The notes beneath the pieces were generated by a model. It made no database searches. It had not been told where the DNA came from and saw nothing but the letters and a program-made list of their open reading frames with translations. The translations under genes and the position numbers were made by a program. A DNA stretch of 59,709 nt, the filler included, from Globobulimina sp. (Eukaryota): the NCBI GenBank assembly GCA_003354225.1. It is 11 parts of 11 records of this genome, joined end to end, with 100 filler letters (N's around TTAATTAATTAA, not from the genome) between each part and the next. Parts side by side here need not be neighbours in the genome. Positions count along the whole stretch, not along the records: positions 48,950 to 54,280 come from PIVH01000627.1; 10 more parts are not named here. One strand, given 5' to 3'. The first letter of the stretch is position 1; every line of letters begins with the position of its first letter. This document shows, piece by piece, positions 5,349 to 54,380 of the stretch.

Positions 5349-5448
5349 NNNNNNNNNNNNNNNNNNNNNNNNNNNNNNNNNNNNNNNNNNNNTTAATTAA
5401 TTAANNNNNNNNNNNNNNNNNNNNNNNNNNNNNNNNNNNNNNNNNNNN
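5349..5448. other. Artificial contig-joining linker (first of ten)
   Basis: 44 N + TTAATTAATTAA (stops in all six frames) + 44 N. Identical linkers at 10796-10895, 16241-16340, 21678-21777, 27115-27214, 32552-32651, 37986-38085, 43418-43517, 48850-48949 and 54281-54380. Contig lengths never increase (5348 down to 5329). Confidence 0.99.
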
Positions 5449-6849
5449 TCAATTGATTTACAACAGATTTTCGAGGCACATTTCAACCAAATTGATGATC
5501 AAATTACAAGTACAAAAACACAAATTAATACGCAAATTGATGCGGTGATTAAATCGTTGCAAAACAGAAAGAAATCATTGGATGGACAGGTTATGTGTCC
5601 ATACTCCATACATTTGTTTTATTTAAATTGTACGCAAAATCGCACACATTTTAAGTTGGATGAATGGAAAGTGCAGAAATTGCAGAATATCAACAAAGAA
5701 ATTGCAAATATTGTTGGCTATCATAACGAGTTAAAAAAAAGCAAAATATCAATCAATGATTTGTTGCGAACGAGCGGTGTAAGTAAAAGAGGTAAGAAAA
5801 TCAAAGAAATTACAAATTCGATATTTGAAAACAAGCAATTTAAAGTTTTTCAAGATTTAAAATTATTAGAAACATTTCTGGCGAATAATACAAAGTTAAT
5901 TGGTGTTACCTTCGACGACGTGATAAACACAAAAGAAATGCAATTATTTGGTGCCTTGGATACAAATTTGCAAAACAATCTATTTAATATAGCCTCAGTT
6001 TTATTGAGTGATGTTGTGACAACAAAAGAAAACGAGAGAGGCTATAAAGTAAAATTAGAATGGCAATTTATCTCAAATGAAGAAGAGAAATCGAATGAGT
6101 TTACAGTTAAATATATGATGGAGGAGGAGGAGGAGAAAAAGGATGAAATGGATTGGAGGATATTAGTGAATGAGGCAACGGTTAAAAGTGAGGGAAATAA
6201 TAAATATTCATTGGACATTGCAAAGTATTTTGAGTATGATAAGATTTATCAATTTGAAATACAACATTTGATTGAAAAACCTTTGAATATCATTGTTTCG
6301 TCAAATATGAAAAGTATTACTGTTGCTGGGAAATGGTTGGATCTCTCCAAAGAGCAATCAATTTCGTTAAATATTCATTCTCATAAAGGACATTATAGGA
6401 GTGACGGACCGGAGAGAATCTTAAATTCAGATAATAATTCTTATCTAAGTCCAGATCGTCAAATAACTGATGATTGGATTATTTTTGAGATGAAAGACGG
6501 TGCAATGTATTATCCGACAAAGTTGCAAGTTCGAGCAAGAGGAACAAATCAGAGTTCAAGTGGTGATCCACGTGCATTGAAAAGATTTCGTTTAAAAATT
6601 GGTAATTCAAATTGTAACGAATGGATTGAACTCAATGAACAAATATTTACTGCGTCAAAAACGGACACAAAATTGCAAACATTTAATTTAGACATTGTTG
6701 ATAATAATAATGTAAATAACCGAATAGTTCAAAAATGGAAATCCATTCAATCAAAAAATTATAAGCAGTTTAAATTGGAAATACTTGATAATTATGGTGA
6801 GTGTTATATTTTAATCCAAGAGTTCAAGATATTTGGTGTGGAAATGTGA
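5449..6849 (+). CDS. Coiled-coil / FN3-like / galactose-binding (F5/8C, discoidin-like) protein, 5' truncated; paralogue of 10193-10795
   Basis: Coiled-coil heptads, then a beta-rich KVKLEW segment, then DWIIFE...LKRFRL...W...KQFKLEILDNYG...IQEFKIFG, typical of discoidin-like beta sandwiches. Probable in-frame 66-nt intron at 5590-5655. Confidence 0.7.
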   Translation, partial: SIDLQQIFEAHFNQIDDQITSTKTQINTQIDAVIKSLQNRKKSLDGQVMCPYSIHLFYLNCTQNRTHFKLDEWKVQKLQNINKEIANIVGYHNELKKSKISINDLLRTSGVSKRGKKIKEITNSIFENKQFKVFQDLKLLETFLANNTKLIGVTFDDVINTKEMQLFGALDTNLQNNLFNIASVLLSDVVTTKENERGYKVKLEWQFISNEEEKSNEFTVKYMMEEEEEKKDEMDWRILVNEATVKSEGNNKYSLDIAKYFEYDKIYQFEIQHLIEKPLNIIVSSNMKSITVAGKWLDLSKEQSISLNIHSHKGHYRSDGPERILNSDNNSYLSPDRQITDDWIIFEMKDGAMYYPTKLQVRARGTNQSSSGDPRALKRFRLKIGNSNCNEWIELNEQIFTASKTDTKLQTFNLDIVDNNNVNNRIVQKWKSIQSKNYKQFKLEILDNYGECYILIQEFKIFGVEM

Positions 6850-7302: not shown

Positions 7303-9531
7303 TTATCTTATTTGTAGAAATTGGTCTATATCTTGTATATGCGTGGAATGTAGAAACGGAAACCAATATGAGACGATGTATTTATTTGGCGAGATAGTAT
7401 CTGCACTGCTTTGTAAGTTGCGTACCACCGAATTTCGAATTCCTTTCAGTTTATTGGACTCGATCCAATGCGTTTGATAGAATTCGTAGTTTGATAGAAA
7501 AATGCTCGTCAATAAGTTGCATAAAAACATACATTGAATGATAAACGCGAATATAAAAAAGATTAAAACAATGTATGAGCCAAAGTTTCGTAAAAATGAT
7601 ATTGTCGCAAACTGCATTTGGTCCATATAATAAAACATGTAATTATTAAAAGTATTTTCATGAAATATGATATTAACCAAATTAAAGCCATTCAAAAACG
7701 TGTCAAAGTTAAATGATTTGTCATCGTCACTCAATCCCGACCACTTTGCATTAATTCCTTCTTCGGCTTTGTGCTCATTTACGTATTGTAAAATATTTGC
7801 AAATAATTCTAATCCCAGCAAAGTTAATGTTATTTGAAATAAAACAACGACAAACATAAAGATTGCAATTCCCCGTAAAGCCAAAATTGTGGAATATAAA
7901 ACTTCATGAAATGTTTGATCAATGTCAGCAAAGCAAATAACCACATATCCCACCCGCAAAATGTGTAAATTGTCGTCGATGCCCAAATGTTGGAAGTTGT
8001 GCGGGTTGGTCACCTGTAAGCATATAATCACAAATGTAATTAATCCATTCGACATATGTCTGGAACGCAGATATTGAGTAACGCCCAAAACATGCACTCG
8101 TAATAAAACCTCCATTAACCAGAGTATATTGCTTAGATCCAGGAATATTACCATCCATTTCGTGTACACCGTGTCATGCAATCTATACAGCACCAAAACA
8201 CTTTGTACCACCGCATAAATACTGAATATTAAATCTGCAGTGGATAACTTTCCAAAAACGGTTGTTTGAAAGAAATGTTTAATTCCATCGTGACAATTGT
8301 GTCTGTATTGCAGGTGCATAGTACTGAACCATATCAAACAGAACTTTGTAAATTCAGCTTCTTGTGCAATTTGCCTATTTTGTTGGTCATTGCAATATAA
8401 CCAATACACAGCAAAGCCGGCAGGAGTATATAACAATGCATTTTGTTGGAAATTGGAAGTATTATAAATATATTCCATTTGTGCTTTGGTCACAAAATCT
8501 GCATTCACGTTGCTGGCAGCTATCACATGATACGCTTCGCTAATTTTTAGCTTGACTTTGGTTATTCTGTTAAAGACTACTTCCGACTCAATGGCGCTGT
8601 ATTGATCCCATATTGCGGATAAAAGTACATTTTTCAACAGTTGGTACATGATTAAAATCAAAATAATCCATAGAATGGAGTGAAGCGGGTTGTATTTGTA
8701 GATGATGGCCCACAATGTTGGTGTATTCAATCCCGCAGTGTACAGAAACATGTGCAGCATTGTTGTGAACAACGAATTGAATTCTGGCAGTTCTCCGACT
8801 GCATTTTTTAAATTTGGATAATAGGATAAAGTTCGTGCGTTATATAAAGAAAATACAAGGATTGAAAATATTGTGGTAATGAACAATATGCCGAATATTA
8901 ATACTTTCAAAACTGCCCAGAATGTGGTTAGTATCATTTGTTTCCAGATCCTAGCAACGACCCAGTATATGAATGGGAAAAACGGCCGCATCAATCTGTA
9001 AATGCGGAAACGGAAAATGCTCACTGGAAACACAAACGTAATTAGAATGCTCACAAAACTAATTGCGCAACAATACCAATGTATGGATAATGATTTGCGT
9101 ACACAGCCCACTGATTTGTATGATATATATAATGCTATGACATGCATGCAAATGCAATATAGTTCAATTAACAAACACCACCGCAAGCACACAATGCATG
9201 TGTTTGATGGTAATAAGAGTGAATTTGGCTCAATGAAACATAAACTGAATTGGATGAGGCAGACAAACAATCCATAGATGCGGTACCATACAGAAGATTT
9301 AAATCGATAAGCTTGAATATTGAAGTCATCAAATAGCGCGTCCCGTGGTTTTATATGATTCGGGCGGTATCCACATCCTTTTATAGTTATAGTTATAATT
9401 GATTAATTATCGTCAAATTCCCTGACTATATATGAAGATTATGAACACAAACCTTGTTGAAGCAGATATACTGCTTTTTTCAATGAATTGATGTTTGGGC
9501 ACTGTGAAGCAACACTGGTTGATCCTGACAT
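7303..9531 (-). CDS. Two-pore channel (TPC family) cation channel
   Basis: Intron 9378-9452 gives the N-terminus KAVYLLQQG..HIKP..AYRF..SLCFIEP, resembling TPC1. Two 6TM repeats with pore segments FNSLFTTMLHMFLYTAGLNTP and FNFDTFLNGFNLVNIIFHENTF, and S6 motifs KNVLLSAIWDQY and NLLTSIFLSNY. Confidence 0.85.
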
Positions 9532-10795: not shown

Positions 10796-11006
10796 NNNNN
10801 NNNNNNNNNNNNNNNNNNNNNNNNNNNNNNNNNNNNNNNTTAATTAATTAANNNNNNNNNNNNNNNNNNNNNNNNNNNNNNNNNNNNNNNNNNNNCAAAC
10901 AAACATTTTAATTCTTTTTTTTATGCACACACGTCATTTTGTCACTAGCTAGCACTGGAAAGTTTTTCTTTAAGTTTTGAAGAAGTTTCGGCAACATTTC
11001 AATGCT

Positions 11007-17322: not shown

Positions 17323-20300
17323 TTAATTTATATCTATTAATTGCTTAAACATCCCGGCGAGGGAATTTATGGTATCAAACGAGATACCATTGGTGTAATT
17401 GAAGGATTTATATTTAGCATATTGCACCGAATTGTAATCTGTTGTTATATAATTAGAGTTATTCGGATGCATTCTTCCTATCTCTGCCAATCTGTCAGCA
17501 ACATTATTAAATGGTTGTTGTTTGGGTGTGGTATGTGATTTTACCTTCCATAGAATAGTCTCACTTTCTTTTTAGGTATTTTTGTGTGTTTATGAACAGA
17601 TTTGAGTGCGCCAATTTATTTATGTTTCATGGTGTGGTTATTAATGGAACAAAATTGTATAATGAATCAGTAAATATTATTCTTCTTCGATTATTGGTGT
17701 TGATTTTGCATAAATTTATTAGAAATTGCGATTTATATATGGCATATAATTCGCCAAAGTGGTTAGTTTGGCCTCCAATGGGCTGTGCAAAGCAATGAAT
17801 GGTATTGCAATCCTTAATAAATATTCCAATTCCTATGGTGTTTGTGCCGGGATCATGCGATGAATCAGTGGCTATTATCAGGTCATTTGGTTTCAAACGA
17901 TTTTTGTTATCATGCCATTCATTAATATTACGGTTACGGGTATGGTATAGGGGCATTTTGCATGGCATCGTTGTGTGTCTGTTTCTCATGCTTTTTAAGT
18001 TCATTTTATTATGGTTTAACAGGTGAATATTATGCAGCCATCGGTGAGTTTGTGAAATTAGTTGTCGATATAAAGTGTATTTATTGATATTTATATTAAT
18101 TGGTCGATGTTTATATATAAATTGATTGGAATCAGTGTCATAGAGATTGGCTCCACAGAGTATTCTCCAGAATTGGAGCCTATGGACATTAACGTTGCGA
18201 CATAATTCAATGAGTCGTTGCATGTACAATTGATTGTGGATTCGATTAATGGCAGCGCCACTTTTGGCAAATGTAAAACTGGCATGGTACCAGTATTCCT
18301 GACGCAGCGCATCCAGCATTGGACAAAGAGCCGCTAAGTGTAGTTCTAAAGGTTTGTCAATATCATTGTGACATAGATTACAATATGGAGTTTGCTGATT
18401 GAAATTGTAAAATAATTCGCGATATGTAGTGATCATTGGTTGTTTTATGTAATCATCCAATTCATGCTTCTCATACATGTTCATCGGTTTATAATCGCTG
18501 GTGCAGTGGTTTAGCACCTTCAGTGGATGATATTTATTTAATTTGTTAATTATGTGTTGGTGCTGTGCTTTTATTATAATTGGACGTAGTTCATGTGGCT
18601 CTGCAACAGTGTCAAAGGGGTCCACCATCAGTACATCATTCTGGACCACCCGGCTTATTGTTGGTAGCCAGTCTCTTTTTAATTCTGTGTATTGCTTATA
18701 CAATTTGTGATGGTTTATATGTGGGAGATGGGCCCATTTGTGCATCAGGGAAACATTTGGAAGGTGCAGTAGTTCGTGGATCATATCATTTAGACTAATT
18801 TTAAGGATCATCTGCATAGAAAATGCACGCTATTTTATTATTATTATCTGGTGAAAAGGCTCCATTGTCAGACGCCTGGAGTTCGTGGATCATATCATTT
18901 AGGAACGCTGCGTAAAGGACAGGTGACAGTACCGAGCCTTGTAAGACTCCATTATGCAATACAAATTTATTGGAAACAAAGGGTATATCACGGATTGCCG
19001 CATGCGAGTTGTTGTAGATTGCTTTAATTATTTTGCAAATATTTAGTGGGATATTAAAATCAGTATGTAATTTATAAATGATACCCTTCCTCCAAACCGT
19101 GTCAAACGCTTTTCGTATATCTAAAAGTGCACAGTAAAGGGGAATGTTTCTCATTTTCGCAGTTTCGGCAATAAGGTGTAATGCACCAATCTGTTCCGGG
19201 ACACCTCTTTTAGAGCGATTTCCTCCTTGTAATATATGTAGGTTTGCTCTAAATTTATGTTGAATACACATTTCCCACAGTATTAGACGTTCGTACGTCT
19301 TAAATATTATTGGTAGGAGTGTTATCGGGCGATATTGGTTTGGCGTGTTCCCGTTCGGTGTCTTTAGAATCGGGATGATTGTACCAAGTCGGAAGTAGTA
19401 GGGAATGAAGAAAGTGTTATTCCAGACATTAAATAATGTGCAAAGTATCTCATTTATGGGGCCTGGGTTAGTTTTAAGATGAACTGTTTTTATGCCATCA
19501 TATCCCGGGGCACTGTTAGGATTCGCCTGCTTTACCGCCAGCTCAATCGATTTGAATTTGCTTATTTTGGGGTCAATTCTCGTGTCACATTCCATTTTTT
19601 CGTCATTTTCTTGATCTATGCTACGGTCCGGGAGATAGCCTGGCGTTTGGCGTTGAATATCAACAATGACATCATTATCATCGTCAGAATCGCTTTCTTT
19701 ATCATGTTCTAAGTCATACAGTTGGTTCATTATTGGCTGCGTTGGTGGAAGATAGTTGGGGTCAAAGTGCGGCGTAAGTACCTCTTCATCGCCGTCTTCC
19801 TCATCCGATATTTGGTAGTTTTCACATATTATTTCAAGCGGTGGCGGTATGCCAATAGTTGCCGTGTCATCCTCCTTTGGCGGTTTATTCGGGATAAAAT
19901 TCAAGTCATTGGCTATGTGCGTTTTTAGGTCATCCTGGAACTGATTTATGCTGTCAATTTTGTGATTATTTACAGGGTCATCCATTTTGCCACAGATCGA
20001 CCCAAAGAATTCCTGCAATGCTGTGTTTTTGTCCATTATTTGATTTTTGTAGTTTAGAAAAGGTTCGTCGACTATGTAATCCATATTTTTATTATAGAAT
20101 TTAAACGTTTTTAGTTTATTGGAATGGTTCAAGTCATTGAAACGTATGGTATTCTGAGTCAATCTATTTTGTTTATTTAGCACGGATTCATTCTCTGCCT
20201 CATTTATTAGAGCACGCATTTCATTGTCGTTTGCATTGGAATTAAGAAAAAGGCGCTGTTTGATATTCAGGGAGATTTGTTTTGAAGTCATTTGGGTCCA

Positions 20301-21371
20301 ATTATTTGCCGAATCATAGTCGGCGATCCCAAACGCTTTTATTGTCGCCAGGTGTATTATATAAATGGCAGTGATTGAGGTGATGTTCGATATATACTCT
20401 CTTTCTGCTTTATTTCGATGTGTTTTTGTGTTCGCGGCAAATTTCGCGAGGTGCCGCGATCTTTTTTGCAAGATATTATAATGCGTTTTCAACAGCTCAT
20501 GATTGGGCTCATAATGCCGCAAAACAAAGTGCTTATCAACTATGTCAGTTTGGATATTAACACCGTTTAATGTGAAAATCACCGGTCTATGATCCATAAA
20601 AACAGGATGCGTATCAATTCGAAGTGATTTTATTGAATTCAGGTTATTTGTGATGACATAATCTATTATGGATCCGCCGGTATTATGAGCGCCCTTCGCA
20701 AGGCACGTGAGAAATTTTGGAGCAAATTGGGGGTTAGCAATTTTCAGATTTGTGGTATCAAGCAGCTGCTTCATATAACGGTAATGCGAATTTGTTGCCG
20801 TGTCCATGGTCATGGCGCCCATACGGGCATTAAAATCACCAATCACATACATATTATCACATTCATTTTTATATTGTTCAATGTCATCCGTTAGTTTTTG
20901 ATAAAAGTCAGCACTTCGTTTGGATAGTTTTGGTTTATATGTGCGAGTGTAATTTATTGCTATGTAGGCCGGTTTGTTCTGTGCAGTGCTATGGACTGCA
21001 ATCCATGCCGTATTATGTCCTCTCGTTTTTTTTATTAGATCTATTTTATTCTTCAAATTTATTTTATGATAAATTAAGACACCACCGACATTTTTGGGGT
21101 TATTTGTGGTGACCGGCGATTTGTGAACAAGTAATTTGTATCCAGGCAAGCTCCAATTCGGTCTGCTGACCCTTCGCGTATCGATTAATAGAATGATGTC
21201 TAACTTATGGTGGATCACTAATTGCTGCATATATGGGTGCATTTGATTGATTTTAGTCTTAGCCTTACCATTGATATTAAGAAACCCAATGGTTAGGTCT
21301 TTTATTTTTATCTTGGTGGTGGTGAATGGTTCAATGTTGGGGTCATAGGATAGTATTAGTATAGGATAGTA
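17323..21371 (-). mobile_element. Decayed non-LTR retrotransposon (LINE): APE endonuclease - reverse transcriptase - CCHC - RNase H
   Basis: APE motifs TIGFLNING, IGDFNA, SIIDY, DHRPV. RT motifs APGYDG, YRPITLL, LDIRKAFDTV, GVLQGSVLSP, YADD. CCHC motif CNLC..H....C. RNase H motifs ATDSS, GELYAI, FTDS, WKVKSH, NNVADRLA. Broken by a frameshift/deletion after YADD (~18800), a TGA at 17627-17629 and a frameshift near 17570. Confidence 0.93.
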
Positions 21372-37853: not shown

Positions 37854-38378
37854 AACTTAAAAGTCCATGTAAATCAATATATATATATAGTCATATAGTC
37901 AGTATTCATTAATATAATTAATATAATTGATTTGTTGGTTGTTTTGTTTTGTTGTTTTTGTTGTCTCTTTCTTTTCATCATCAGCNNNNNNNNNNNNNNN
38001 NNNNNNNNNNNNNNNNNNNNNNNNNNNNNTTAATTAATTAANNNNNNNNNNNNNNNNNNNNNNNNNNNNNNNNNNNNNNNNNNNNACATCTTTGTGCAAG
38101 AGCCGTATTCATTTAATATCTCAAATCTGTCCCTCCAATTTTGCCGTTTTATTCTCCATTTTCTTTGTTCGTGTTGTAAATCAAATTGGGGGACTGTTTG
38201 TGACGGCCATTTGTATTGTTTTTGTTTGATATATTTGCTGCATAAAAGCATAACATACCACCAAATACATTCCACCAATGGCGCGATGTAACTTTTTAGT
38301 TAATTTAATTTTAAATACTTGAGTTTTTTAATTAAAAAAAAACCATTTTCTCACAGCATCATTTCGACGTAGTTAGCA

Positions 38379-40580
38379 ATGGATTTGCAATCTTTGTGGT
38401 TGACAAATCATTCAATTTTAGATAAAATGGAAGATTTGGAATACAAATCAAAAGAACAAGAAATCATTGAATCGTTATTTGGTGGCACCAGAAATATGAT
38501 CAAAATTATGTTGAAAAAGAAAAATAATTTATCGTATATTCAACAAAAAGAATTATTTAAGATATTAAAAAAACCAAAACAAAATAAAACAAGAAAAGAA
38601 ATGAATGTAAATGAAAATGGTGAAATAAATTTGAGCAGTTTGAATAGCAATTGTTTAGCATCGATATTTATATTTTTAACACCCTACGAAAGAGGAATAC
38701 TGTCAACAATGTGTAGAATGTTTTGTGTTGCAGCACAATTTAAAAAATCTTATCCAAATTCACAAATATTACAATTTCCTTTAAACAAAGTCTACCATTT
38801 TATACATAAAATATCGGAAATAAAAGATATTGATAACAATGCAAACAATAATGATTTATTAAAATTAATGCATGAATCGGAATTATTATGTTTATGGATA
38901 AAAAATGAAAATCAGTTCGCCACTTTAGAACCTATTGCTACATCTGGAATTTTACCCACATTCTCCAATTTATTATTAAATCAACATATTATTAAACATC
39001 ACATCAAATTTATTGCAAACATTTTATTTCTATTTAAAGCTCTTTCGGAAATCCCATCCCTTCGTTTAAGCATTGTGAATGTAAATATAATTGAAAATCT
39101 AGCAATCTTTATTAATGACAGTCACATATTTGCCACACAAGATACTTTCACACAACATGAGGTTATTCCGCATATTGTAACTATTATTCACAATTTATAT
39201 TCACAAGATTTTCATATTCGAGTAGAGAAATCCTATATTATCCATAGAATTATTTGTGTTTTACAAAGCCAATGGACCAAAAACACCAAAGATTTATCGT
39301 GGATCATAAGTGCGTTGAATTTGGCTTGTAACTGGATGCACTGTGCACCAATGGACCATTATGGTATAATTAAAAAGGTCATTCCTCAGTTTATTAATAA
39401 AATCAGTGCTTTAATTGATGTTCAAAATAGCAAGGAATGGATTTATAACTTATTATCGCCCGGCAATGCTGTCATTATTAGCGACCCAGACCAACCACCA
39501 AGGATCCATACCGATATACATTATGTAACGAGTGACGATTATGTGTTTACTGTAGCACAAATTATTGAATTACCGTCAAGAAATGATTCAGATCCAATGA
39601 TTACACTTTTAGGCAAATTTAAAAATGCTACCAATCCTCAACAAAAGTTATGTGTTGAATTGAAGCGCGTTCATATTCAGTATCTGAGGAACCGCCGTGG
39701 AATCTATGGCTGTATGTTGGCTGCATTTGAATCTTTATGTGCTTTGTTGTCTGTATATAGACAGTATAATAATATCGATTTTAAATCGAATCAATACGCA
39801 CCAATCACAAATGGAATAAAACGAATATTACAAGTTTCTCAGACACAATTTCCTGATGTTTCGCATGTTGATATTTTCTTGGATTTATTAGAGAGTGATT
39901 GGGATTTTTTTATGCATTTAATTCCCAATGAAATACAGACGCAATTTATGCCAGACCCTCGCGCCTATAAACGATACGAGAAATTGTATACTTTGATTGA
40001 TGCTGCATTTGATTGTCATAAATTAGATTCTCTATGTAAAGTGGAGTGGTTTCGACAAAGCTTTTCTCGACCTTTTGGTAGAAATAATGAGGTCTATCCA
40101 GACAGTTTACCGAAGCATTGGAATGAATATATACTTACTGGATTGTTAAAGAATTTTTGTGGTGATTATAGATCGTATTGTCACCTTTCTGCAGTTGTAC
40201 ACAAATTAGATTGCTCAACAATGGATTATCAATATTTTATAGAAGAAAATGGCATCTCTTCTCTGCTCCAAATTATATCAACAGTGGTGAAACCTGAATA
40301 TTATGAAGGACCGATCAGTGATATATGTCAGATAATGTTGGGAAACAGCAAATTAATATTAAGCAACGTATTTGTTTATTTATCAGATAATCGGTTCGGA
40401 GAAGAGGTTTTTTGGAAATACTTTTCAGTGGAAATATTTCGCGTGGCATTGCAATCGGTATTGAGTATAAATAGAGATAATGGGAAACCACTCACGAATG
40501 AAAAACTGATGGAAATGGTATTAGAACAAATGGAAAGGTTTCTTGGTGAGCAGCAAGCGGCTGTTTTAAACATTGCTTGA
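38379..40580 (+). CDS. F-box-like motif protein with ARM-like helical repeats
   Basis: LSSLNSNCLASIFIFLTPYERGILSTMCRMF resembles an F-box; IATSGILPTFSNLL and FIEENGISSLLQII are ARM-like; 733-aa ORF. Confidence 0.65.
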   Translation: MDLQSLWLTNHSILDKMEDLEYKSKEQEIIESLFGGTRNMIKIMLKKKNNLSYIQQKELFKILKKPKQNKTRKEMNVNENGEINLSSLNSNCLASIFIFLTPYERGILSTMCRMFCVAAQFKKSYPNSQILQFPLNKVYHFIHKISEIKDIDNNANNNDLLKLMHESELLCLWIKNENQFATLEPIATSGILPTFSNLLLNQHIIKHHIKFIANILFLFKALSEIPSLRLSIVNVNIIENLAIFINDSHIFATQDTFTQHEVIPHIVTIIHNLYSQDFHIRVEKSYIIHRIICVLQSQWTKNTKDLSWIISALNLACNWMHCAPMDHYGIIKKVIPQFINKISALIDVQNSKEWIYNLLSPGNAVIISDPDQPPRIHTDIHYVTSDDYVFTVAQIIELPSRNDSDPMITLLGKFKNATNPQQKLCVELKRVHIQYLRNRRGIYGCMLAAFESLCALLSVYRQYNNIDFKSNQYAPITNGIKRILQVSQTQFPDVSHVDIFLDLLESDWDFFMHLIPNEIQTQFMPDPRAYKRYEKLYTLIDAAFDCHKLDSLCKVEWFRQSFSRPFGRNNEVYPDSLPKHWNEYILTGLLKNFCGDYRSYCHLSAVVHKLDCSTMDYQYFIEENGISSLLQIISTVVKPEYYEGPISDICQIMLGNSKLILSNVFVYLSDNRFGEEVFWKYFSVEIFRVALQSVLSINRDNGKPLTNEKLMEMVLEQMERFLGEQQAAVLNIA

Positions 40581-41217
40581 ATCAAAGTTATCAAACTATT
40601 ATTCTTTTGAATTTATCACCGAGAATGAGCTGAATTCATATGATTTGTTATTCGCAAGTTTGGTTAAATTTATTTAATTTTTCTTTTCGATTTTTATGAA
40701 TTATTTGCATTGTTTGATTGCTTATTATTTTGGATATTCCACCTTTGTTTATACGTTTTCTTTTTGTATATATTCAAAGTATATTTTATCATTACATGTT
40801 TTTGATTTGTTGTATAGTTTTTATGCGATACCATTGTTTTTTTCATTTTGTCCTAAATTTTATTGAGATTTCAAAATATGTTTTAAATTCTTTTATAAAA
40901 TAAATATATTGTTGATAAAAAATTACATTTTTTAAGTTATGCACATTGTCGCATTTTGTTTTGGGAAGTTTTATTTTGATAAACTATGCGAAAGAGCCCT
41001 ATTTATTTTTGTTTCTGTTCTGGGTTCTATATTTTTTATTTAATTATTTCTTATTTCTAATTAAGTTACAAAACTCAAATTTTAGACTCGGTCCGAGATG
41101 TAACAACAAATTATTCATACATACTTTAAAAAGTCACAAAATTCTATTTAAAATAGGTTACTGATTTTGTTTTGATAAAATTAAAAAACTTGAGAGAAAA
41201 AAAGGTGATACTAAAGA

Positions 41218-43272
41218 ATGTCAAGCGAAAACGCAGAAATGTTGCGTCCAATAATAATTGTTATCTGTTTATTTTTAAATACAGCAGGAATGCATTTGTT
41301 AAATGATTATGAAATGGCATTGAATTGGATGATTGGTCAAAGATTGCACAACGGAAAGTTGGATGATGGAATGTTATGGAAATCAAACGAATTCGATAAT
41401 GCGTTGTTAACTGCGATGCATCAAACTGAATACCTAACAATCTTTGATGAAATAAGCAAATTAATCAACTCAGAGTATGATCCATCTCAAGATGCAAAAT
41501 ATCTGATTGTAATCCAACAATGTAATATTAATGACGGCAGTATTCCGCGTAATAGATTATCCATTTATAAATATTCAGTGTTCATTCATTGGATGCAAGA
41601 GAACATTTTAATGCATCAATTTCTATTTATTAAAAATGTTTTTAGTGTCAGGATTATTGCTGAAATGTTTACTGACGTCGATCTGATAACACATTGCGAT
41701 GAATGGCACCAGAAATTAGATATGCTTTGGAACGTCTATTGTTTGCCAAATATCATTCATTTGACACCTCAGCAAAGTAAGCAAATTAATTTAAGTCTGA
41801 TGATGTGGAAATATTTGGACACAATTCGTTTCTCGCAACATTACCTGAGCTATTTGCAACACTTCGATGCAATGTTACTATCAAACAAATTTATTCCGAG
41901 GCAGAGTGATTATTATTTTATTTTCAATTTGAACACAATTGATTTTGCCACAAAACAAATGTACTTTTCTCAATGGCTGGAAACAATTCAAACTCACACA
42001 ATCAATGATGATAATCCACAATTTAGCAATGCAAATGTGCTCAATTCATTTATTTCAAACATATTGAAATCAGATGAATTCGCTTATCATCCGAGAATTA
42101 CATTTGCTATGGTTTCTTTGCAACGGGTTTTGTCATTGTCGACAAATACAGAAATAAATCAATTATATGACGTAAATTCGTTGCTATTGATATTCAATGC
42201 CTGCGTTGAATGGAATAATACGTATCATTTACGCGAATTGAGATTGATTTTTACAGAGTTACAACTTTCAGAACAACAATTATATGAATTGGGTGTAGCG
42301 GTGTTGAACAATGGAGATTTTAGTATTATGTCCTCAGATAATATTAATTTCAGCCAAAGGTTAATAAAATTATTTTCTACCAAAAATGAAACAGTGTATC
42401 ACAAAATTATTGAATGGATGCAGAGCATTCCAGACATGATTTCTCCCAAATGCTACTATTTGGGGACATTATTAAATGAATTGAGAGAGTTGAATGCAAC
42501 TCATTTATTTCTATTTTTCATGAATTGGTTGAGACAAATAATAGACATATTTGCTATTAAAGAGAATTATAAACTTATTTTTCTCGTTTTTAATAATTTC
42601 CCAGCTCATTCAGAAGAACATTGCAAGATAATCAGGCCTTTTTGGACCAATTTCGTTGTCCCGACAATCAATTCTTATATTCAAATCAGGCAGAAAAAGG
42701 ATATCAGATTCGGCAGAGCCACCAGACTGAGGAAGGATACTTATATTAAAACAATGATTAATTATTATTTGAACAGACTGACGCCGGTTTATTCTGATGA
42801 AATGACTGCGGAATATTGTTCTGTTTTTGATTATGCAGTTTCGACAAACATATGGCATCCATTGCGAATGCACTATTATATGTTTATGATTTTTCGCAGA
42901 TTGAGCGTGGGGGATAAAGTGAGATATTTTGAGCAATGGATTTCTGGAAATTTAACCATGCGTAGAGACCCATATGTAGCTTCTCCTGCAATTGCAAATT
43001 ATGAAATATTTAACGCCTTTTTGAATTCTTATTTGATAAACAATGCGGATATTCACCCTGAGAATGCTCCACTGTTTTTAATGAAAAGTATTGAATATTT
43101 GCAGCTGGCATGCGTAAAACAAAGATTTTTTGGCGATTTTATTATTGCCAAGACAACAACAATTATAAATCAAGCGTGTGTCAAATATGGACAAGGTTCC
43201 TGTATCGATGCCATGTTATCTATTCCGTTGATTAAAGACAAGATTCTCGTGGCCAAAGTGATTCGACAGTAG
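41218..43272 (+). CDS. Hypothetical secreted, helix-rich protein with an internal repeat
   Basis: 684-aa ORF; signal-like MLRPIIIVICLFLNTAG (second Met, 41239). Confidence 0.65.
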   Translation: MSSENAEMLRPIIIVICLFLNTAGMHLLNDYEMALNWMIGQRLHNGKLDDGMLWKSNEFDNALLTAMHQTEYLTIFDEISKLINSEYDPSQDAKYLIVIQQCNINDGSIPRNRLSIYKYSVFIHWMQENILMHQFLFIKNVFSVRIIAEMFTDVDLITHCDEWHQKLDMLWNVYCLPNIIHLTPQQSKQINLSLMMWKYLDTIRFSQHYLSYLQHFDAMLLSNKFIPRQSDYYFIFNLNTIDFATKQMYFSQWLETIQTHTINDDNPQFSNANVLNSFISNILKSDEFAYHPRITFAMVSLQRVLSLSTNTEINQLYDVNSLLLIFNACVEWNNTYHLRELRLIFTELQLSEQQLYELGVAVLNNGDFSIMSSDNINFSQRLIKLFSTKNETVYHKIIEWMQSIPDMISPKCYYLGTLLNELRELNATHLFLFFMNWLRQIIDIFAIKENYKLIFLVFNNFPAHSEEHCKIIRPFWTNFVVPTINSYIQIRQKKDIRFGRATRLRKDTYIKTMINYYLNRLTPVYSDEMTAEYCSVFDYAVSTNIWHPLRMHYYMFMIFRRLSVGDKVRYFEQWISGNLTMRRDPYVASPAIANYEIFNAFLNSYLINNADIHPENAPLFLMKSIEYLQLACVKQRFFGDFIIAKTTTIINQACVKYGQGSCIDAMLSIPLIKDKILVAKVIRQ

Positions 43273-48849: not shown

Positions 48850-49531
48850 NNNNNNNNNNNNNNNNNNNNNNNNNNNNNNNNNNNNNNNNNNNNTTAATTA
48901 ATTAANNNNNNNNNNNNNNNNNNNNNNNNNNNNNNNNNNNNNNNNNNNNCAATTGATGAAAGAATGAAGCAACTCAGGGTTCCTGTCTATCATGAGCAAG
49001 AGAAGAGTGAGAGTGATGAGCAAGAACAAAAACCCGGTTTTTGGCATAACTGTTTTTATGGGTTTCGCAGCGAAAAAGGATTACGGTAGGCTTTTTGGCG
49101 GGAAAACTGAATACTTGAGGTTTCATATGGTAAACCCACTTCTGTTGCCAGAAAATCCAAGACACATGATAAGCAGGAGCAAAAAAACAAGTTTTTAGGA
49201 TTACTGTACTTTTTGGGGAAAACATAACTTGAACTTTGAAAAAACAATATGGTATGTTTTTGTCGAGAAAAAACTGAGTATGTGCAATTGTTTTTTGACA
49301 GGAAAAAGCCTTTTTTAAGGTATTTGATAGAATGAAAACTGAGCTATCTCAGAAGGATACCCTGGAATGTAAGAATGATTGCATATGGGATCGAAATCGG
49401 TTTCAGTCAAAAGGAGCCACATTCATCGAATCTTAAAAATTGTATGGCGCTGCATCACAAAAAAAGATGAATGTTGAGATGCACCAACACTATATAGGAA
49501 AGCTATCACTCTTTATGTACATTTTCTCAAA

Positions 49532-50014
49532 ATGTCTGTAATAAAAGATGCTGATCATGCCCTCGAAGTGCTGGTTGTCCAAGTAATTGGTGCCGGCTCA
49601 CAACTATATGTCGACATTCATAACCCTGTGCTTGATAAAATGTTGGAAGATATCCAACTGATGCTCCACGATAACCAGGAATTCTATCAATCAGTTGTTG
49701 TAAATCTCACGGGATCCAAAGTAGATGAAACCCTGGCCAGCTGCTTCGCCGATAACAAGATGAATTGGGGACGGATTGTCGCAGTGTTTACCCTGCTGTA
49801 TGTGTATGCCGAGAAAAACAAAGACTGCTACAAGTGCAAGCGTGCATTGAAACATGTATTCACAACGGCTCTGCAAAGCTATGCCGCTCCATGGATAAAA
49901 AGTCGCGGAGGAATGTCGAACTATATTAGCCCTTGTCGATTTCATTTCTGTCTATGTTTTTGTCTTGCTATGAGCATTGTAGCTGTAATGATGATAAAAG
50001 ATGTATGTCATTAA
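49532..50014 (+). CDS. Bcl-2 family protein (viral-type apoptosis regulator)
   Basis: BH1 FADNKMNWGRIVAVFTL, BH2 WIKSRGG and a C-terminal hydrophobic anchor; TATA-like TATATAG ~40 nt upstream and AATAAA downstream. Confidence 0.9.
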   Translation: MSVIKDADHALEVLVVQVIGAGSQLYVDIHNPVLDKMLEDIQLMLHDNQEFYQSVVVNLTGSKVDETLASCFADNKMNWGRIVAVFTLLYVYAEKNKDCYKCKRALKHVFTTALQSYAAPWIKSRGGMSNYISPCRFHFCLCFCLAMSIVAVMMIKDVCH

Positions 50015-50069
50015 TTTCATCCCATATAATTAAAATAAAAGGAACATGTAAATGTTTTTTTCAAGAACC

Positions 50070-50825
50070 ATGTCTACATCAATTCAGAACGATTTTTACT
50101 TGTACCTCGTCAACCGACTAGCTGGCAATGGTGCATTGGAAGCTTCCTGCAAACTTCCATCAACCATCGACCTGTCGAGAGATAACTATGAAATAAGTCT
50201 GGTCGAAATTCAGTTGCCCGGTCCATGGCATAATGTATATGATGCCATGATCGACATTTGGTCTCTGGAAAAACCTGAGGAACGAGTGCAGATGACTATT
50301 CCGGATGGAAATTACAAAAACTTTGAAGTGCTTGCAAAAGTTGTCGAACGTCTTAGCAAAAGGGCCGAATACAAACTGGACGGTAAATTGATCAACCTTC
50401 AGTTCAAATTCATAAAAACCGAGTCCGGCAACTTCTATGTTGCACAAAATTTTGGTGTCGGAATGATGTTCAGCCCGAGGCTCATGCATATAATGGGACT
50501 CCACTCCACAGAACTGATCAATGATTCGACTCGAGAAGAACGAACTCGGATTTACCCAAACATTAATCTCGGGCATTACAGTATAATCGCAGGATGCAAT
50601 GTAGTACCATTTTCGACCATTGGAGAATACTCTGGAAAGGTTTTGCGAGTGTTTTCTCCACCCTCGGATGGACCGATGAGCATCAATGTTCGTGAAATAT
50701 ATGTACCAGTGGCGGTAAACATGATGGATCAGATCACCGTGACATTGCATAACATGATGGGTCATCAAATTTCCTTTGAAAATGATGAAATGGTCATCCT
50801 TGTGCATCTTAGAAAAGTGATATAA
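50070..50825 (+). CDS. Polinton-type minor capsid (penton-like) protein
   Basis: DFYLYL...LPSTIDL..YEISLVEIQLP..WHN at the N-terminus and CNVV...IG...KVLRV...IYVPV...QITVTL....G.QISF......HLRK at the C-terminus. Confidence 0.85.
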   Translation: MSTSIQNDFYLYLVNRLAGNGALEASCKLPSTIDLSRDNYEISLVEIQLPGPWHNVYDAMIDIWSLEKPEERVQMTIPDGNYKNFEVLAKVVERLSKRAEYKLDGKLINLQFKFIKTESGNFYVAQNFGVGMMFSPRLMHIMGLHSTELINDSTREERTRIYPNINLGHYSIIAGCNVVPFSTIGEYSGKVLRVFSPPSDGPMSINVREIYVPVAVNMMDQITVTLHNMMGHQISFENDEMVILVHLRKVI

Positions 50826-50869
50826 GTGATCGATTTGATGATGTATGGGTGTTTTTGAAAATAAAAATT

Positions 50870-52374
50870 ATGGCTACGGTTGTCGGGAATTTCGCTGCTA
50901 AACCAGCGGTGGATGATAATGTAAAGAACTTCTTCTTTGATCGAATAACAACAAGCAGCATTTTGCCCAGGACTAATACTGATCCCATCACATTCATTGT
51001 ACCCAGTATAGATGGTAAGTTGTGGACAGTCAGTAAAGTTGTGCAAGCGAAATAATTTACTCATTGATTTAGGAATGGCGATCGATCTAAATCAGATTTA
51101 TATGACGGTCAGATTTAGAATAAGGAAAAGAAATGCCGAGGGAGTGTACGAAAACATTGGTGATGAAAATACAGCCCCATACAATGTCTTCTTGTACAGT
51201 CTCTTCTCAGAATTGGAGATCGAGCTCAACAACGAACTGGTAAGTAAATCAACCAAACTTTTACAATAAAATTGATGATTTTCATTCCAGGTTGACAGTA
51301 CAAAGTTCAACTATCAGCTGCAAACATACTTGAAGGTTCTACTCAACTCTACCGAATCGGCGAGAAACACCATTCTACAATCGGCATTATTTTATAAAGA
51401 CAAAGCGGGGGCGTTCGCGTTGGTCAGTAGAGCTAATGCAAATTTGAGCTGGGGTAACTACAAAAGAGCCACTGCCATAATGAATTCGCGAACAGTCGAG
51501 CTAAGGGGACGCGTTTTGTCGGACGTATTCGATACTTCCAAACCGTTGATCGATGGTGTAAGCTTGCTCTTACGATTTTATCCTGAAAGTTACGACAAAT
51601 GTTTGATCACAACGATGCCACCACCACCCGCTCTACCAGCGCAGCCTCCGCCACCACCAGTTTATCAAGTTGAAATCATATCTGCCGAGCTGAGCGTGGG
51701 GCGCATTCAGCCAAAACAAGTTAACATACCAATGGCTGTCTATCCTTACACCAAAATGAAAACCCAGCGACACATATTCCCGAGAGGACTCACCGAATTT
51801 GGACCAGTGACCATTGCATCGGGTATCTTACCAGAACGTGCCTGGGTTGTTATGATTACCGAACAGGCATTCACAGGCAGTGTGATCGATCACCGGCTAA
51901 ATTTTCGGGTAAGTTTACAGTAGATGATAAATGTTGTAATCTAATACTTTACTTTTGCAGAATTTTGGTCTCAGTCATATCGCGGTCACCGTAAACTCGG
52001 AGATGAAACCTTTCAAACAAGGCTACAATCCAGACTTCGCCCATAACCTGTATGGTGAAGCGTACAATGCTTTGGTGCATGAGGCAGCTAAAACGCTTGG
52101 TACTGTGGACATCCCCATAAGTTATGGTGACTATGATTCAGGTTACACCATCTTCGTCTGGGATCTCAGTCAGAATCACAGCATCAAGAAGGAAGATCAA
52201 TGGTCGCCGGCGACAGTAGGTGGATTGGCCACATTGAAAGCAACATTCAGTGCTGCGCTGCCCGAAAACATATGCATCTACGTTGTCCTAGAGTACCCTC
52301 AAACATATACAGTAAGACGTGATCGTACAATTGCGATCGAGGAAGCTCCGCAAAAGAAGAAAAAGACCCAGTGA
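50870..52374 (+). CDS. Polinton-type major capsid (double jelly-roll) protein, 4 exons, 447 aa after splicing
   Basis: Introns 51015-51072, 51240-51290 and 51909-51960 (all GTAAGT..AG) give a 1344-nt CDS with PITF, IDL..IY, N.FLYSLF, Y..Y...LL, FYKD, KR, D.F...K.L..GV, G.LP, AF.G....LNF, Y..GYTIFVWDLS and F...L..N motifs. Confidence 0.9.
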
Positions 52375-52415
52375 TATATTATTGAGTGTCAGTGTGTTTG
52401 ATGAAACATAAAATG

Positions 52416-52840
52416 TTACAAAGTGGCATTACATTTCTGTTCTAATATACCCCACGAAAAGTGCCGACCCTTTTCAAAAAAACCCCTATCAGATGTTTGG
52501 ACCAAGCGATGACCGTCCCATTGATGTAGTTGGTGAGCCGGCCGACTTCTGGGAGCCCCCCAATGGGTCTGGGTTGTCATGATAACTAAAGCAACAAAAT
52601 GGTTAAAATACTTTGGTCTCAGAGACAAAACCGCTCAAACAACATGTATGGGGAACCATACATCCCCAAAGTGGTGGAAAATCTTTAGTACCGTCGATGT
52701 CCCCATATGGAGACTACGACTCGGGGTACACTTTCAAAAAATCTCAGCATCAAGAAGATGATCCCCAGCAATGGTTGGCAACTCATTCGAGGCGGTCCCC
52801 ACTCAAAACATCTATTTATCTCGAAAAGTTGTTATGGTAG
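52416..52840. pseudogene. Heavily deleted relics of a second major capsid gene (+) and of the 52863-53363 gene (-)
   Basis: Plus-strand pieces LSDV, WVVMIT, FGL, TVDVPI, YGDYDSGYT and SIKK occur in MCP order; minus-strand GILEQKCN at ~52428-52452. Confidence 0.8.
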
Positions 52841-52862
52841 CAGTTACAAAAAATGTTTTTAT

Positions 52863-53363
52863 TCAGTAACAAAGCCAATGATACATCGTATATATCGCAT
52901 ATGCAGATACATTACACTTTTGCTCGAGAATACCATATCGCAAAACACCGTTGTAGAAATTCAGATTCACATAAGGAATCAGTTCCAAATGATATCCTTT
53001 TCTCTGTTCCAAGGGTTCCATCGTTTCAAAAGCTCTTTTAAGAAAGTATGCCACTCGTCTAATCGCATCTTTGGACCATGCCACAGCCGTTCTGTTACAA
53101 TAAATGGTCAGACGTTCGTTCTTCTCTTTGTCATAGCAGAAAGTCAGCAAGCTCCGCTCTGTCATCTTCATCATGGAAAAAAGACAGTTATCATCGGCCC
53201 ACACCTTTTTTGTTGTAGTCGTTAATGTAGTAGTTTCCGACTTTGTAACCGGTGCAACATGGGAGGGTTCCAGCAATAGGATGCAAATAAAAATTAGTGC
53301 TAAACCAGCCACCCCGGCACACAAAGATAGAAAATTCTTTTTGTCAAGTATCTTATTAGCCAT
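52863..53363 (-). CDS. Small membrane-anchored protein of the element (N-terminal TM, Thr-rich stalk, Cys-containing domain)
   Basis: 166-aa ORF, FLSLCAGVAGLALIFICILLL then TTTLTTTT; the paralogous relic conserves GILEQKCN through synonymous changes, which supports coding status. Confidence 0.7.
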   Translation of the reverse strand: MANKILDKKNFLSLCAGVAGLALIFICILLLEPSHVAPVTKSETTTLTTTTKKVWADDNCLFSMMKMTERSLLTFCYDKEKNERLTIYCNRTAVAWSKDAIRRVAYFLKRAFETMEPLEQRKGYHLELIPYVNLNFYNGVLRYGILEQKCNVSAYAIYTMYHWLCY

Positions 53364-53441
53364 ATTGAGTTATAAACGGTTATTCAGGGCCTTCGTACTT
53401 AAACAAAAATAGAGATGAACATATGATGAACTGCGTACAAT

Positions 53442-53499
53442 GTGATTGGTCGAGGATGAATTACATCACTTGTCACGTGATCTGCATCCCTATAAAAGA
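53442..53499 (+). promoter_or_regulatory. Pol II promoter: inverted CCAAT, E-box and TATA box
   Basis: GTGATTGG (53442-53449), GTCACGTGA (53472-53480) and CTATAAAAG (53490-53498), 37 nt before ATG 53535. Confidence 0.65.
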
Positions 53500-53534
53500 A
53501 GAGGTTCATCATCTCTCATCTCATTGTTGTCGGT

Positions 53535-54056
53535 ATGAAACCTAGGGCGAAGAAGGTTTGCGAAGTGTGTGATAAAACGTTTTCTAGTGCAAACATTGGT
53601 CGCCATAAGCGAGGGATGCACTCTTACTGTATCGACTGTCAGCAGTTGGTATCGAGAAAGAGACACAATTGTTTCAAAAGTGACGGATCAGGCCCCAATT
53701 TTGCCCCTAACCCCCCAAACGACAAAGATCAATTTCTGTTGGTTCACGTTCCGGTGCTCATTCGAAAACAACTATACAAGAAACTCGACGCGGACGGCTC
53801 CATTTGGCCACTGTACAACTTTGAAGAAAAAGAAGATCCCATTGCTGTTAAAGTTAAGACAGTCTTAAAACAAAACTGTCTCACTTGCGTGGTTTCTGAA
53901 TATCTGGATGTACCCAAAGATAGACACAGTTGTACAAATCCAAACCGTCAAGAATTTGTCAGTGCTCTAAACCAGTGTACGGACAGTGTGATAAACAATG
54001 TCTACCAAACGATGTTCGGAGGAACTGGAGGACCGCCTGACCAACTTGTACTATGA
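53535..54056 (+). CDS. C2H2/C2HC zinc-finger protein of the element
   Basis: CEVCDKTFSSANIGRHKRGMH, CIDC..RHNC and CLTC..RHSC. Confidence 0.8.
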   Translation: MKPRAKKVCEVCDKTFSSANIGRHKRGMHSYCIDCQQLVSRKRHNCFKSDGSGPNFAPNPPNDKDQFLLVHVPVLIRKQLYKKLDADGSIWPLYNFEEKEDPIAVKVKTVLKQNCLTCVVSEYLDVPKDRHSCTNPNRQEFVSALNQCTDSVINNVYQTMFGGTGGPPDQLVL

Positions 54057-54140
54057 CCCTACATCTCCGGTCGGCTATTCGGGAAATCGTGAGGTGGAGG
54101 GAAAACACATATCATGATTTATCAATGATAAGGACCTTAC
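54012..54140 (+). pseudogene. Remnant of a Polinton-type retroviral-like integrase
   Basis: SEELEDRLTNLYYDPTSPVGYSG matches the L..YYDP..P..(F/Y)SG start of these integrases; it is one base out of frame with ATG 54012, stops at a TGA about 10 codons later, and no DDE core follows. Confidence 0.65.
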
Positions 54141-54380
54141 TTGGTTCAATACACTCTGGAGCAAACTTTCCAAAGGAGGCCGACACTTTGAAGGGTATAT
54201 GAAGCATGAGACCAAATTAGGGCAAGATTTATGGACCATGGCCACCTATACGTGTGTACGCCGAGACGATGGCACTGTTCNNNNNNNNNNNNNNNNNNNN
54301 NNNNNNNNNNNNNNNNNNNNNNNNTTAATTAATTAANNNNNNNNNNNNNNNNNNNNNNNNNNNNNNNNNNNNNNNNNNNN

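Follow-up and report, generated by a model that had tools for sequence, protein, structure and literature searches.

The capsid locus and its gene model

A predicted major capsid protein gene of the Polinton/Maverick kind, divided by three putative spliceosomal introns, lies at positions 50870-52374 of a 59,709-nucleotide (nt) stretch of the Globobulimina sp. assembly GCA_003354225.1. This whole stretch, called the window here, consists of 11 contigs of a fragmented assembly arranged in a chain, with linkers of the form N44-TTAATTAATTAA-N44 between them, and the capsid gene is found on one of these contigs. A Bcl-2 family gene and a penton (minor capsid) gene precede it on the same strand, and a decayed partial capsid copy and two further open reading frames (ORFs) follow it. 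The features and their coordinates are collected in Table 1.

Table 1. Features of the capsid gene, of its contig and of the window (positions count along the whole window; aa, amino acids)
Feature	Position	Strand	Length	Details
Capsid exon 1	50870-51014	+	145 nt	ATG; codons 1-48 plus 1 nt
Intron 1	51015-51072	+	58 nt	phase 1; GTAAGT..TTTAG; GC 0.34
Capsid exon 2	51073-51239	+	167 nt	codons 49-104
Intron 2	51240-51290	+	51 nt	phase 0; GTAAGT..TCCAG; GC 0.25
Capsid exon 3	51291-51908	+	618 nt	codons 105-310
Intron 3	51909-51960	+	52 nt	phase 0; GTAAGT..TGCAG; GC 0.27
Capsid exon 4	51961-52374	+	414 nt including TGA	codons 311-447
Bcl-2 family gene	49532-50014	+	160 codons	single ORF; Pfam PF00452, E 2.2e-10 to 2.8e-10
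Penton gene (minor capsid, single jelly-roll)	50070-50825	+	257 aa	single ORF; the 257 aa are those of the open frame 50052-50825
Partial capsid copy	52500-52850	+		decayed, riddled with deletions; copies the 3' part, about 51800-52330
ORF, membrane-type	52866-53363	-	166 aa	N-terminal hydrophobic segment; no family
ORF, weak C2H2 zinc-finger signal	53535-54056	+	173 aa	TATAAAAG box at 53491-53498
Contig of the capsid gene	48950-54280		5331 nt	sole physical context of the gene
Linkers between contigs	5349-5448, 10796-10895, on to 54281-54380

The joined exons of 50870-52374 give 447 stop-free codons followed by TGA. Retention of any one of the introns brings in-frame stops, and introns 1 and 3 shift the reading frame as well. 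The division of the gene by three introns had been put forward in an earlier note on this DNA, and its coordinates, its intron sizes and its 447-codon frame were all reproduced. The motif GTAAGT occurs three times on the plus strand of 50800-52400, each time exactly at a predicted exon end, and the wider motif GTRAGT also occurs only three times on the plus strand of the entire 5.3-kb contig. The match of the GTAAGT sites to the exon ends is far beyond chance.

All three introns display the features of U2-type GT-AG introns, namely a consensus donor and a pyrimidine-rich acceptor, and their GC content (0.25-0.34) is lower than that of the exons (0.40-0.47). Beyond the splice-site consensus the introns are mutually unlike, and no second copy of any of them was found in the 59.7-kb window. 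In size and AT-richness they resemble other introns of the assembly. Five such introns, located by eye in two genes on other contigs of the window, are about 55-75 nt long and AT-rich; their donors are GTATGT (twice), GTTAGG, GTCTGA and GTATCT, and the donors of the capsid gene are better.

Logan contigs of the sequencing runs X1-X3 were also compared with the region. X1 alone matched, and no exon joint was reported. A 561-nt X1 contig continues unbroken through introns 1 and 2 (50772-51332); the X1 material behaves as DNA or as unspliced sequence and is silent on expression.

Colinearity with single-ORF proteins

A full HMMER scan with exon 3 as the query returned 317 proteins at E <= 1e-3. 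Most of them are 410-455 aa long and are matched at about residues 110-310, which is the place that exon 3 occupies in the model. The family was found by this full scan; a word-index search for longer homologous proteins found none.

The spliced window protein was aligned by MAFFT with 86 homologues of 400-470 aa, all of them single-ORF calls. The earlier note had named gaps or insertions at the predicted junctions as the sign of a wrong model, and the alignment is free of both at all three (0/3 at 48/49, 104/105 and 310/311). Insertions and deletions of the window protein relative to the family core are located at residues 4, 6, 32, 72, 77, 78, 153, 213, 252, 328, 388, 390 and 439. The protein fills 414 of the 436 core columns and keeps every one of the eight near-invariant residues of the family. 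The relative P0096 (71% identity) crosses junction 2 unbroken, with residues exactly as predicted for the joined peptide. Since removal of the three GTAAGT..AG stretches restores colinearity with the family, a model of real introns is supported.

Identity and predicted fold

The closest full-length homologue, P0008, is 31% identical to the window protein over residues 12-439 (428 residues, E 9e-67). Its AlphaFold2 model, calculated from a 78-sequence alignment, has a predicted local distance difference test score (pLDDT) of 94.6 and a predicted template modelling (TM) score (pTM) of 0.92. In Foldseek this model matched the major capsid protein (MCP) of Sputnik (3j26_A, 6.1e-17, TM 0.71), the mavirus MCP (3.6e-16) and PBCV-1 (1.6e-15). 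The best match of the same model in BFVD was a Cotesia bracovirus protein (3.5e-23, 19% identity), which was followed by virophage, adomavirus LO7, adintovirus and MELD virus proteins. An ESM Atlas look-up with exon 3 led to clusters named double jelly-roll-like and Capsid_N.

Pfam gave no meaningful match for the capsid exons at E values up to 10 and no match for 25 capsid homologues. A PHROGs search, as well as sequence searches of the PDB with exon 3, the penton and the family profile, also gave no meaningful match. Judged by the structural model, the family is predicted to have the Polinton/Maverick type of major capsid protein, with a double jelly-roll. Proteins of this type, which also occur in virophages and NCLDVs, contain two eight-stranded jelly rolls in succession within a single chain. 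The identification as a major capsid gene, already made in the earlier note, is thus borne out by the predicted double jelly-roll fold of P0008, by the eight conserved residues and by the penton neighbour.

Intron positions among relatives

A second search with exon 3 returned ten proteins at E <= 0.001, of which eight were new and nine were 72-87% identical to the query; four relatives at 74-80% identity cover 100% of exon 3. In public protein collections this lineage is present only as exon-sized fragments of 99-235 aa, produced by prokaryote-style gene calls, and ORF-based mining would miss the lineage, as had been anticipated. Exons 1 and 2 are too short for called proteins, and intron sharing was therefore compared at introns 2 and 3.

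Eleven relatives at 72-90% identity (P0172-P0179, P0003, P0004 and P0154), coming from three sources, reach the end of exon 3. Homology ends exactly after the last exon-3 codon in all 11, and the proteins then read on with Val-Ser (10) or Val-Arg (1), as would be expected of a frame that runs into a GTAAG donor. In P0172 and P0174, an intron-like tail with Gln (CAG) as its last residue leads directly into exon 3 at its first codon. At exactly the intron 2 site, P0011 (51% identity) has 20 extra residues in frame, the first of them Val and the last Gln. Relatives that share intron positions, which the earlier note had proposed to look for, therefore exist: protein read-through marks intron 3 in 11 of them and intron 2 in three. 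The sites of introns 2 and 3 are unbroken in the distant relatives P0005 (37%), P0006 (38%) and P0009 (36%), and the junction of intron 1 is unbroken in P0009 (36%) and P0008 (31%).

A quick maximum-likelihood tree of 70 rows, covering the exon-3 region, places the nine rows with intron 3 in one clade (SH-aLRT 98), which is nested among rows not seen with this intron. As the intron-3 rows constitute one nested clade, a single gain suffices. P0096/P0168 (71%) seem, in their translations, to leave an intron near residue 77 and to enter a GTAAGA-type donor near residue 144, which suggests that intron positions differ within the group. Partial homologues that start near residue 105 had also been considered as a sign that intron 2 is ancient; this was rejected, as their starts scatter over residues 92-139 or so and may depend on which Met the gene caller picked.

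Variation among copies

Contigs of X1 cover the region, introns included, and 43 of the 91 pieces are only 90-95% alike, from which it follows that several diverged copies or strains coexist. The 40 best-supported differences between the capsid contig and the X1 variant contigs were examined, 29 of which fall in the Bcl-2, penton and capsid genes or in intron 3. Synonymous changes make up 17 of the 26 coding differences (Bcl-2, 6/9; penton, 5/7; capsid, 6/10), against an expectation of about 29% given the transitions and transversions observed (P 1.5e-4). On this sequence comparison, all three genes appear to be under purifying selection among copies. The capsid gene is, as far as its sequence can tell, real, intact, constrained and dependent on the spliceosome.

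Neighbouring genes and the rest of the contig

The two genes upstream had been described as intronless, and both proved to be single uninterrupted ORFs. The Bcl-2 product ends in a hydrophobic tail, and its gene is accompanied by a TATATA box at 49491-49496. In the penton gene, the start of the homologues corresponds to the Met at 50070. The penton ORF is colinear with seven homologues at 41-60% identity, five of which are full length (249-266 aa). Its AlphaFold2 model is of moderate confidence (mean pLDDT 72.8). With this model, VIA-align gave Z values of 10.3 for 8h2i_bG (PBCV-1 capsid), 10.0 for 8roq_M (fowl adenovirus capsid), 9.1 for 6g41_A (mavirus penton) and 7.3 for 3j26_N (a Sputnik chain). 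BFVD matches of the model included the mavirus minor capsid protein (1.2e-8), adintovirus proteins and adomavirus LO5. The 257-aa ORF is accordingly read, from its modelled structure, as a putative penton.

The spacers between the Bcl-2, penton and capsid genes measure 37 and 44 nt. By eye, AATAAA is seen inside a shared AAAATAAAA motif at 50034-50039 and 50860-50865, just 5' of the penton and capsid starts. Possibly all three genes belong to a single transcription unit that has several poly(A) sites. The capsid relative P0003 (72%) and the penton relative P0164 (55%) are each recorded on an NCBI contig of 11,331 nt; this is probably one contig, in which case the penton-capsid pair would have been kept together in a relative.

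The decayed capsid copy downstream is recognized by a local alignment score of 183.5, compared with 102.3 +/- 8.0 in 200 shuffles (z 10.1), and is also backed by colinear seeds and by the repeats D1 and D6. It appears to retain a trace of intron 3, and would then be a DNA-level duplicate of the intron-bearing gene. The 166-aa and 173-aa ORFs may be cargo or accessory genes. A frame at 53998-54279 on the plus strand is interrupted by a stop codon at 54115 and truncated where the contig ends. Its start resembles a motif of Maverick integrase N-termini, a tentative likeness that has no Pfam support.

Pfam searches recognized no polymerase, integrase, ATPase or protease domain on the 5331-nt contig, which ends on both sides. 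That these domains were not found in 5.3 kb is no evidence of their absence from the element; the ATPase and protease genes may lie beyond the contig ends. Scans of the contig, which does not reach the ends of the element, for tandem and inverted repeats revealed no structure like a terminal repeat and no convincing inverted repeat.

The other contigs of the window

The 11 contigs measure 5348, 5347, 5345, 5337, 5337, 5337, 5334, 5332, 5332, 5331 and 5329 nt, their length falling along the window. They are unrelated and merely chained, so that genes across a linker are not genomic neighbours. A host-gene context for the capsid gene is consequently nonexistent; the apparent host neighbours are located on other contigs. 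The GC content of the capsid contig is 0.416, compared with 0.30-0.36 for the ten others. These encode ordinary eukaryotic genes, including sulfatase, RGS, CAP-Gly, long interspersed nuclear element (LINE)-type reverse transcriptase, GPS-motif receptor and PX genes, together with M14 peptidase, C2, mitochondrial carrier, CAP, sulfotransferase and PRELI genes. The LINE-type ORF, with endonuclease and reverse transcriptase domains, is located at 18801-21371 on the minus strand of a different contig. Open frames of 466-735 aa that have no Pfam family are also present on other contigs (38373-40580, 41215-43272, 5449-6849 and 7303-9402).

Interpretation of the locus

The stretch at 50870-52374 is probably the intron-split major capsid gene of a Maverick/Polinton (adintovirus-like) double-stranded DNA virus element, spliced by the host. 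The host would transcribe the gene in the nucleus, and its spliceosome would have to excise the three introns before the 447-aa protein could be made. This protein would form trimeric capsomers and, with the penton, build an icosahedral shell, so that capsid production would depend on host splicing. The perfect match of every donor to the consensus points to selection for efficient splicing, and perhaps also for an export or expression of the virion's most abundant protein that depends on introns. The introns would go back to one gain in a common ancestor, whose descendants form a clade that has diversified to 72-90% protein identity while under purifying selection. Such introns imply nuclear transcription and a long residence in, or association with, host genomes that add introns. 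Nuclear expression and the assembly of capsids are what we infer for this gene. As the carrier, a still-mobile Maverick/adintovirus-like element is preferred to a free virus or to a capsid module kept by the host.

Several points weigh against this interpretation. Splicing is deduced from the genomic sequence and from homology, and the fold was predicted for a relative of 31% identity (P0008), not for the window protein. Intron sites in the relatives were read from prokaryote-style ORF translations and not from DNA, and P0096/P0168 (71%) are unbroken at the site of intron 2, which would make that intron less than universal in the clade, unless that record is a transcript. The X1 variants behind the selection estimate might represent alleles, paralogues or different strains, and the count was limited to the differences with the best support. 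With 5.3 kb of contig and no recognizable polymerase, integrase, ATPase or protease, the locus is no more than a candidate part of a complete Maverick. The decayed copy and the putative, stop-bearing integrase-like frame hint that the element may no longer be intact here.

Under domestication, the host would keep the penton, capsid and Bcl-2 genes as ordinary nuclear genes with acquired host introns after the replication and integration genes had decayed, and the proteins would serve a host function, such as the making of particles, rather than virus spread. Long-resident nuclear genes gain introns, and the capsid introns are host-like in size and composition; the three genes are under purifying selection, and the remainder of the contig looks degraded, with its decayed capsid copy and a possible beginning of an integrase that is broken by an in-frame stop, and searches of it revealed no domain for replication or integration. 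The other intron positions in the 71% relative likewise suggest a continuing turnover of introns of the host type. However, the variants at 90-95% (43/91 pieces) and at least 11 diverged relatives from three sources resemble a proliferating family more than a single conserved host locus, and the tight viral gene order and spacing have been retained. The penton and Bcl-2 genes have not gained introns, and the contig is too short to show an absence of other virus genes. Domestication is regarded as unlikely; old introns shared by a diversified clade under purifying selection would suit a long-resident mobile lineage as well as a domesticated capsid module. Somewhat less likely again is that the penton/capsid/Bcl-2 cluster is a Maverick morphogenesis unit kept by a small invertebrate for its own virus-like particles. 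Such a unit would combine purifying selection with continuing host-type gain and loss of introns and, by analogy, would resemble the domesticated viruses of parasitoid wasps while being derived from a Maverick.

The remaining explanations concern the introns themselves. That every retained intron halts translation, and that among the three genes only the capsid gene has introns, would suit the regulated splicing put forward in the earlier note, by which introns would usually be retained and would be removed late or on a trigger, so gating capsid expression. Perfect GTAAGT donors with good acceptors are, however, the mark of constitutive, efficient introns. The donors of the five other assembly introns are weaker than those of the capsid gene, and no alternative sites or regulatory elements were identified; gating of this kind is improbable. 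An origin of the introns as copies of an intron-generating transposon (introner) is suggested by the Maverick-polinton-like proviruses of dinoflagellates, which introners are described as populating (PMC11957031). The capsid introns share only the splice-site consensus, with no other copy in the 59.7-kb window, the sole part of the genome searched, and their positions are conserved across relatives at 51-90% identity, which marks them as old and not as recent insertions. An introner origin is thus given very little credence. The least probable reading, that of a dead capsid pseudogene with chance insertions resembling introns, might appeal to the decayed copy that adjoins the gene and to a vertebrate study, according to which most endogenous Mavericks are degraded and homology tools label insertions as 'introns' (PMC8097293). 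It is already contradicted by three perfect GTAAGT..AG pairs whose removal restores exact colinearity with the family, by interruptions that are conserved in 11 relatives with open exons, and by differences among copies that are mostly synonymous.

Comparison with known systems

Polinton capsid genes are normally single ORFs, as the earlier note had stated, and introns like those described here are absent from the capsid genes reported for such elements in vertebrates, nematodes and most protists. Intact vertebrate Mavericks are described as having core genes free of introns (PMC8097293), nematode Mavericks are reported to have 'intronless' core genes with introns in cargo genes only (10.1101/2022.07.12.499685), and the endogenous mavirus-like elements of Cafeteria are without introns (PMC8547959). 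The methods of a large survey consider prokaryote-style callers suitable on the grounds that endogenous viruses 'do not contain introns' (PMC10120064). Intron-bearing capsid lineages would be systematically under-counted, or misjudged as degraded, because Maverick/Polinton mining usually relies on such prokaryote-style ORF callers that assume no introns (PMC10120064). The conserved capsid introns would tie capsid production to nuclear transcription and host splicing, which bears on the site and mode of late-gene expression. As a dated marker, with one gain in the clade, they may record the time that the lineage has spent in intron-adding host genomes. With this locus, it becomes tractable to ask whether elements of this kind remain viruses or are in the course of being co-opted by their host.

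The animal Mavericks are similar to the present element in having a double jelly-roll MCP that matches Sputnik, Faustovirus and PBCV-1 (10.1101/2022.07.12.499685). In both, a minor capsid (penton) gene accompanies that of the MCP, and the MCPs are of similar size, about 420-450 aa. Unlike theirs, the capsid gene described here has three introns, conserved within its clade, and belongs to a family that has no Pfam model. Mavirus and Sputnik provide the best solved structural matches for both the capsid (3j26_A, 6g44_A) and the penton (6g41_A, 3j26_N), although their capsid sequence identity is only 10-12%.

In adenoviruses and polyomaviruses, capsid proteins are produced from spliced nuclear transcripts, in which splicing mainly joins leaders to bodies or selects among ORFs. 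In contrast, the three small introns described here would break the coding sequence itself, in the style of a host gene. Structural searches with the capsid model and with the penton model both brought up adintovirus and MELD virus proteins. Adintoviruses, a proposed group of animal-tropic MELD viruses, have adenovirus-like hexon and penton genes, and Bcl2 homologues have been reported in them (PMC8502044). The polymerase and integrase that define the adintovirus group were not recognized on the 5331-nt contig. Within the main text of the adintovirus paper, no word starting with 'splic' occurs, and the lone 'intron' refers to group II intron maturases (PMC8502044).

A partial literature search brought up no account of an animal-type Maverick whose capsid gene has conserved spliceosomal introns. 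The sole exception found to intronless elements is formed by the introner-invaded proviruses of dinoflagellates, which are different in kind (PMC11957031). Like the present element, these proviruses belong to the Maverick-polinton group, have introns of the spliceosomal type and have kept their capsid genes; in these protist elements the introns arose recently, as copies of repeated transposons that generate introns (PMC11957031). The introns of the capsid gene at 50870-52374, unlike those introners, are unique, mutually unlike, old and fixed in position, and they are carried by an element that has a Bcl-2 gene of the metazoan type.

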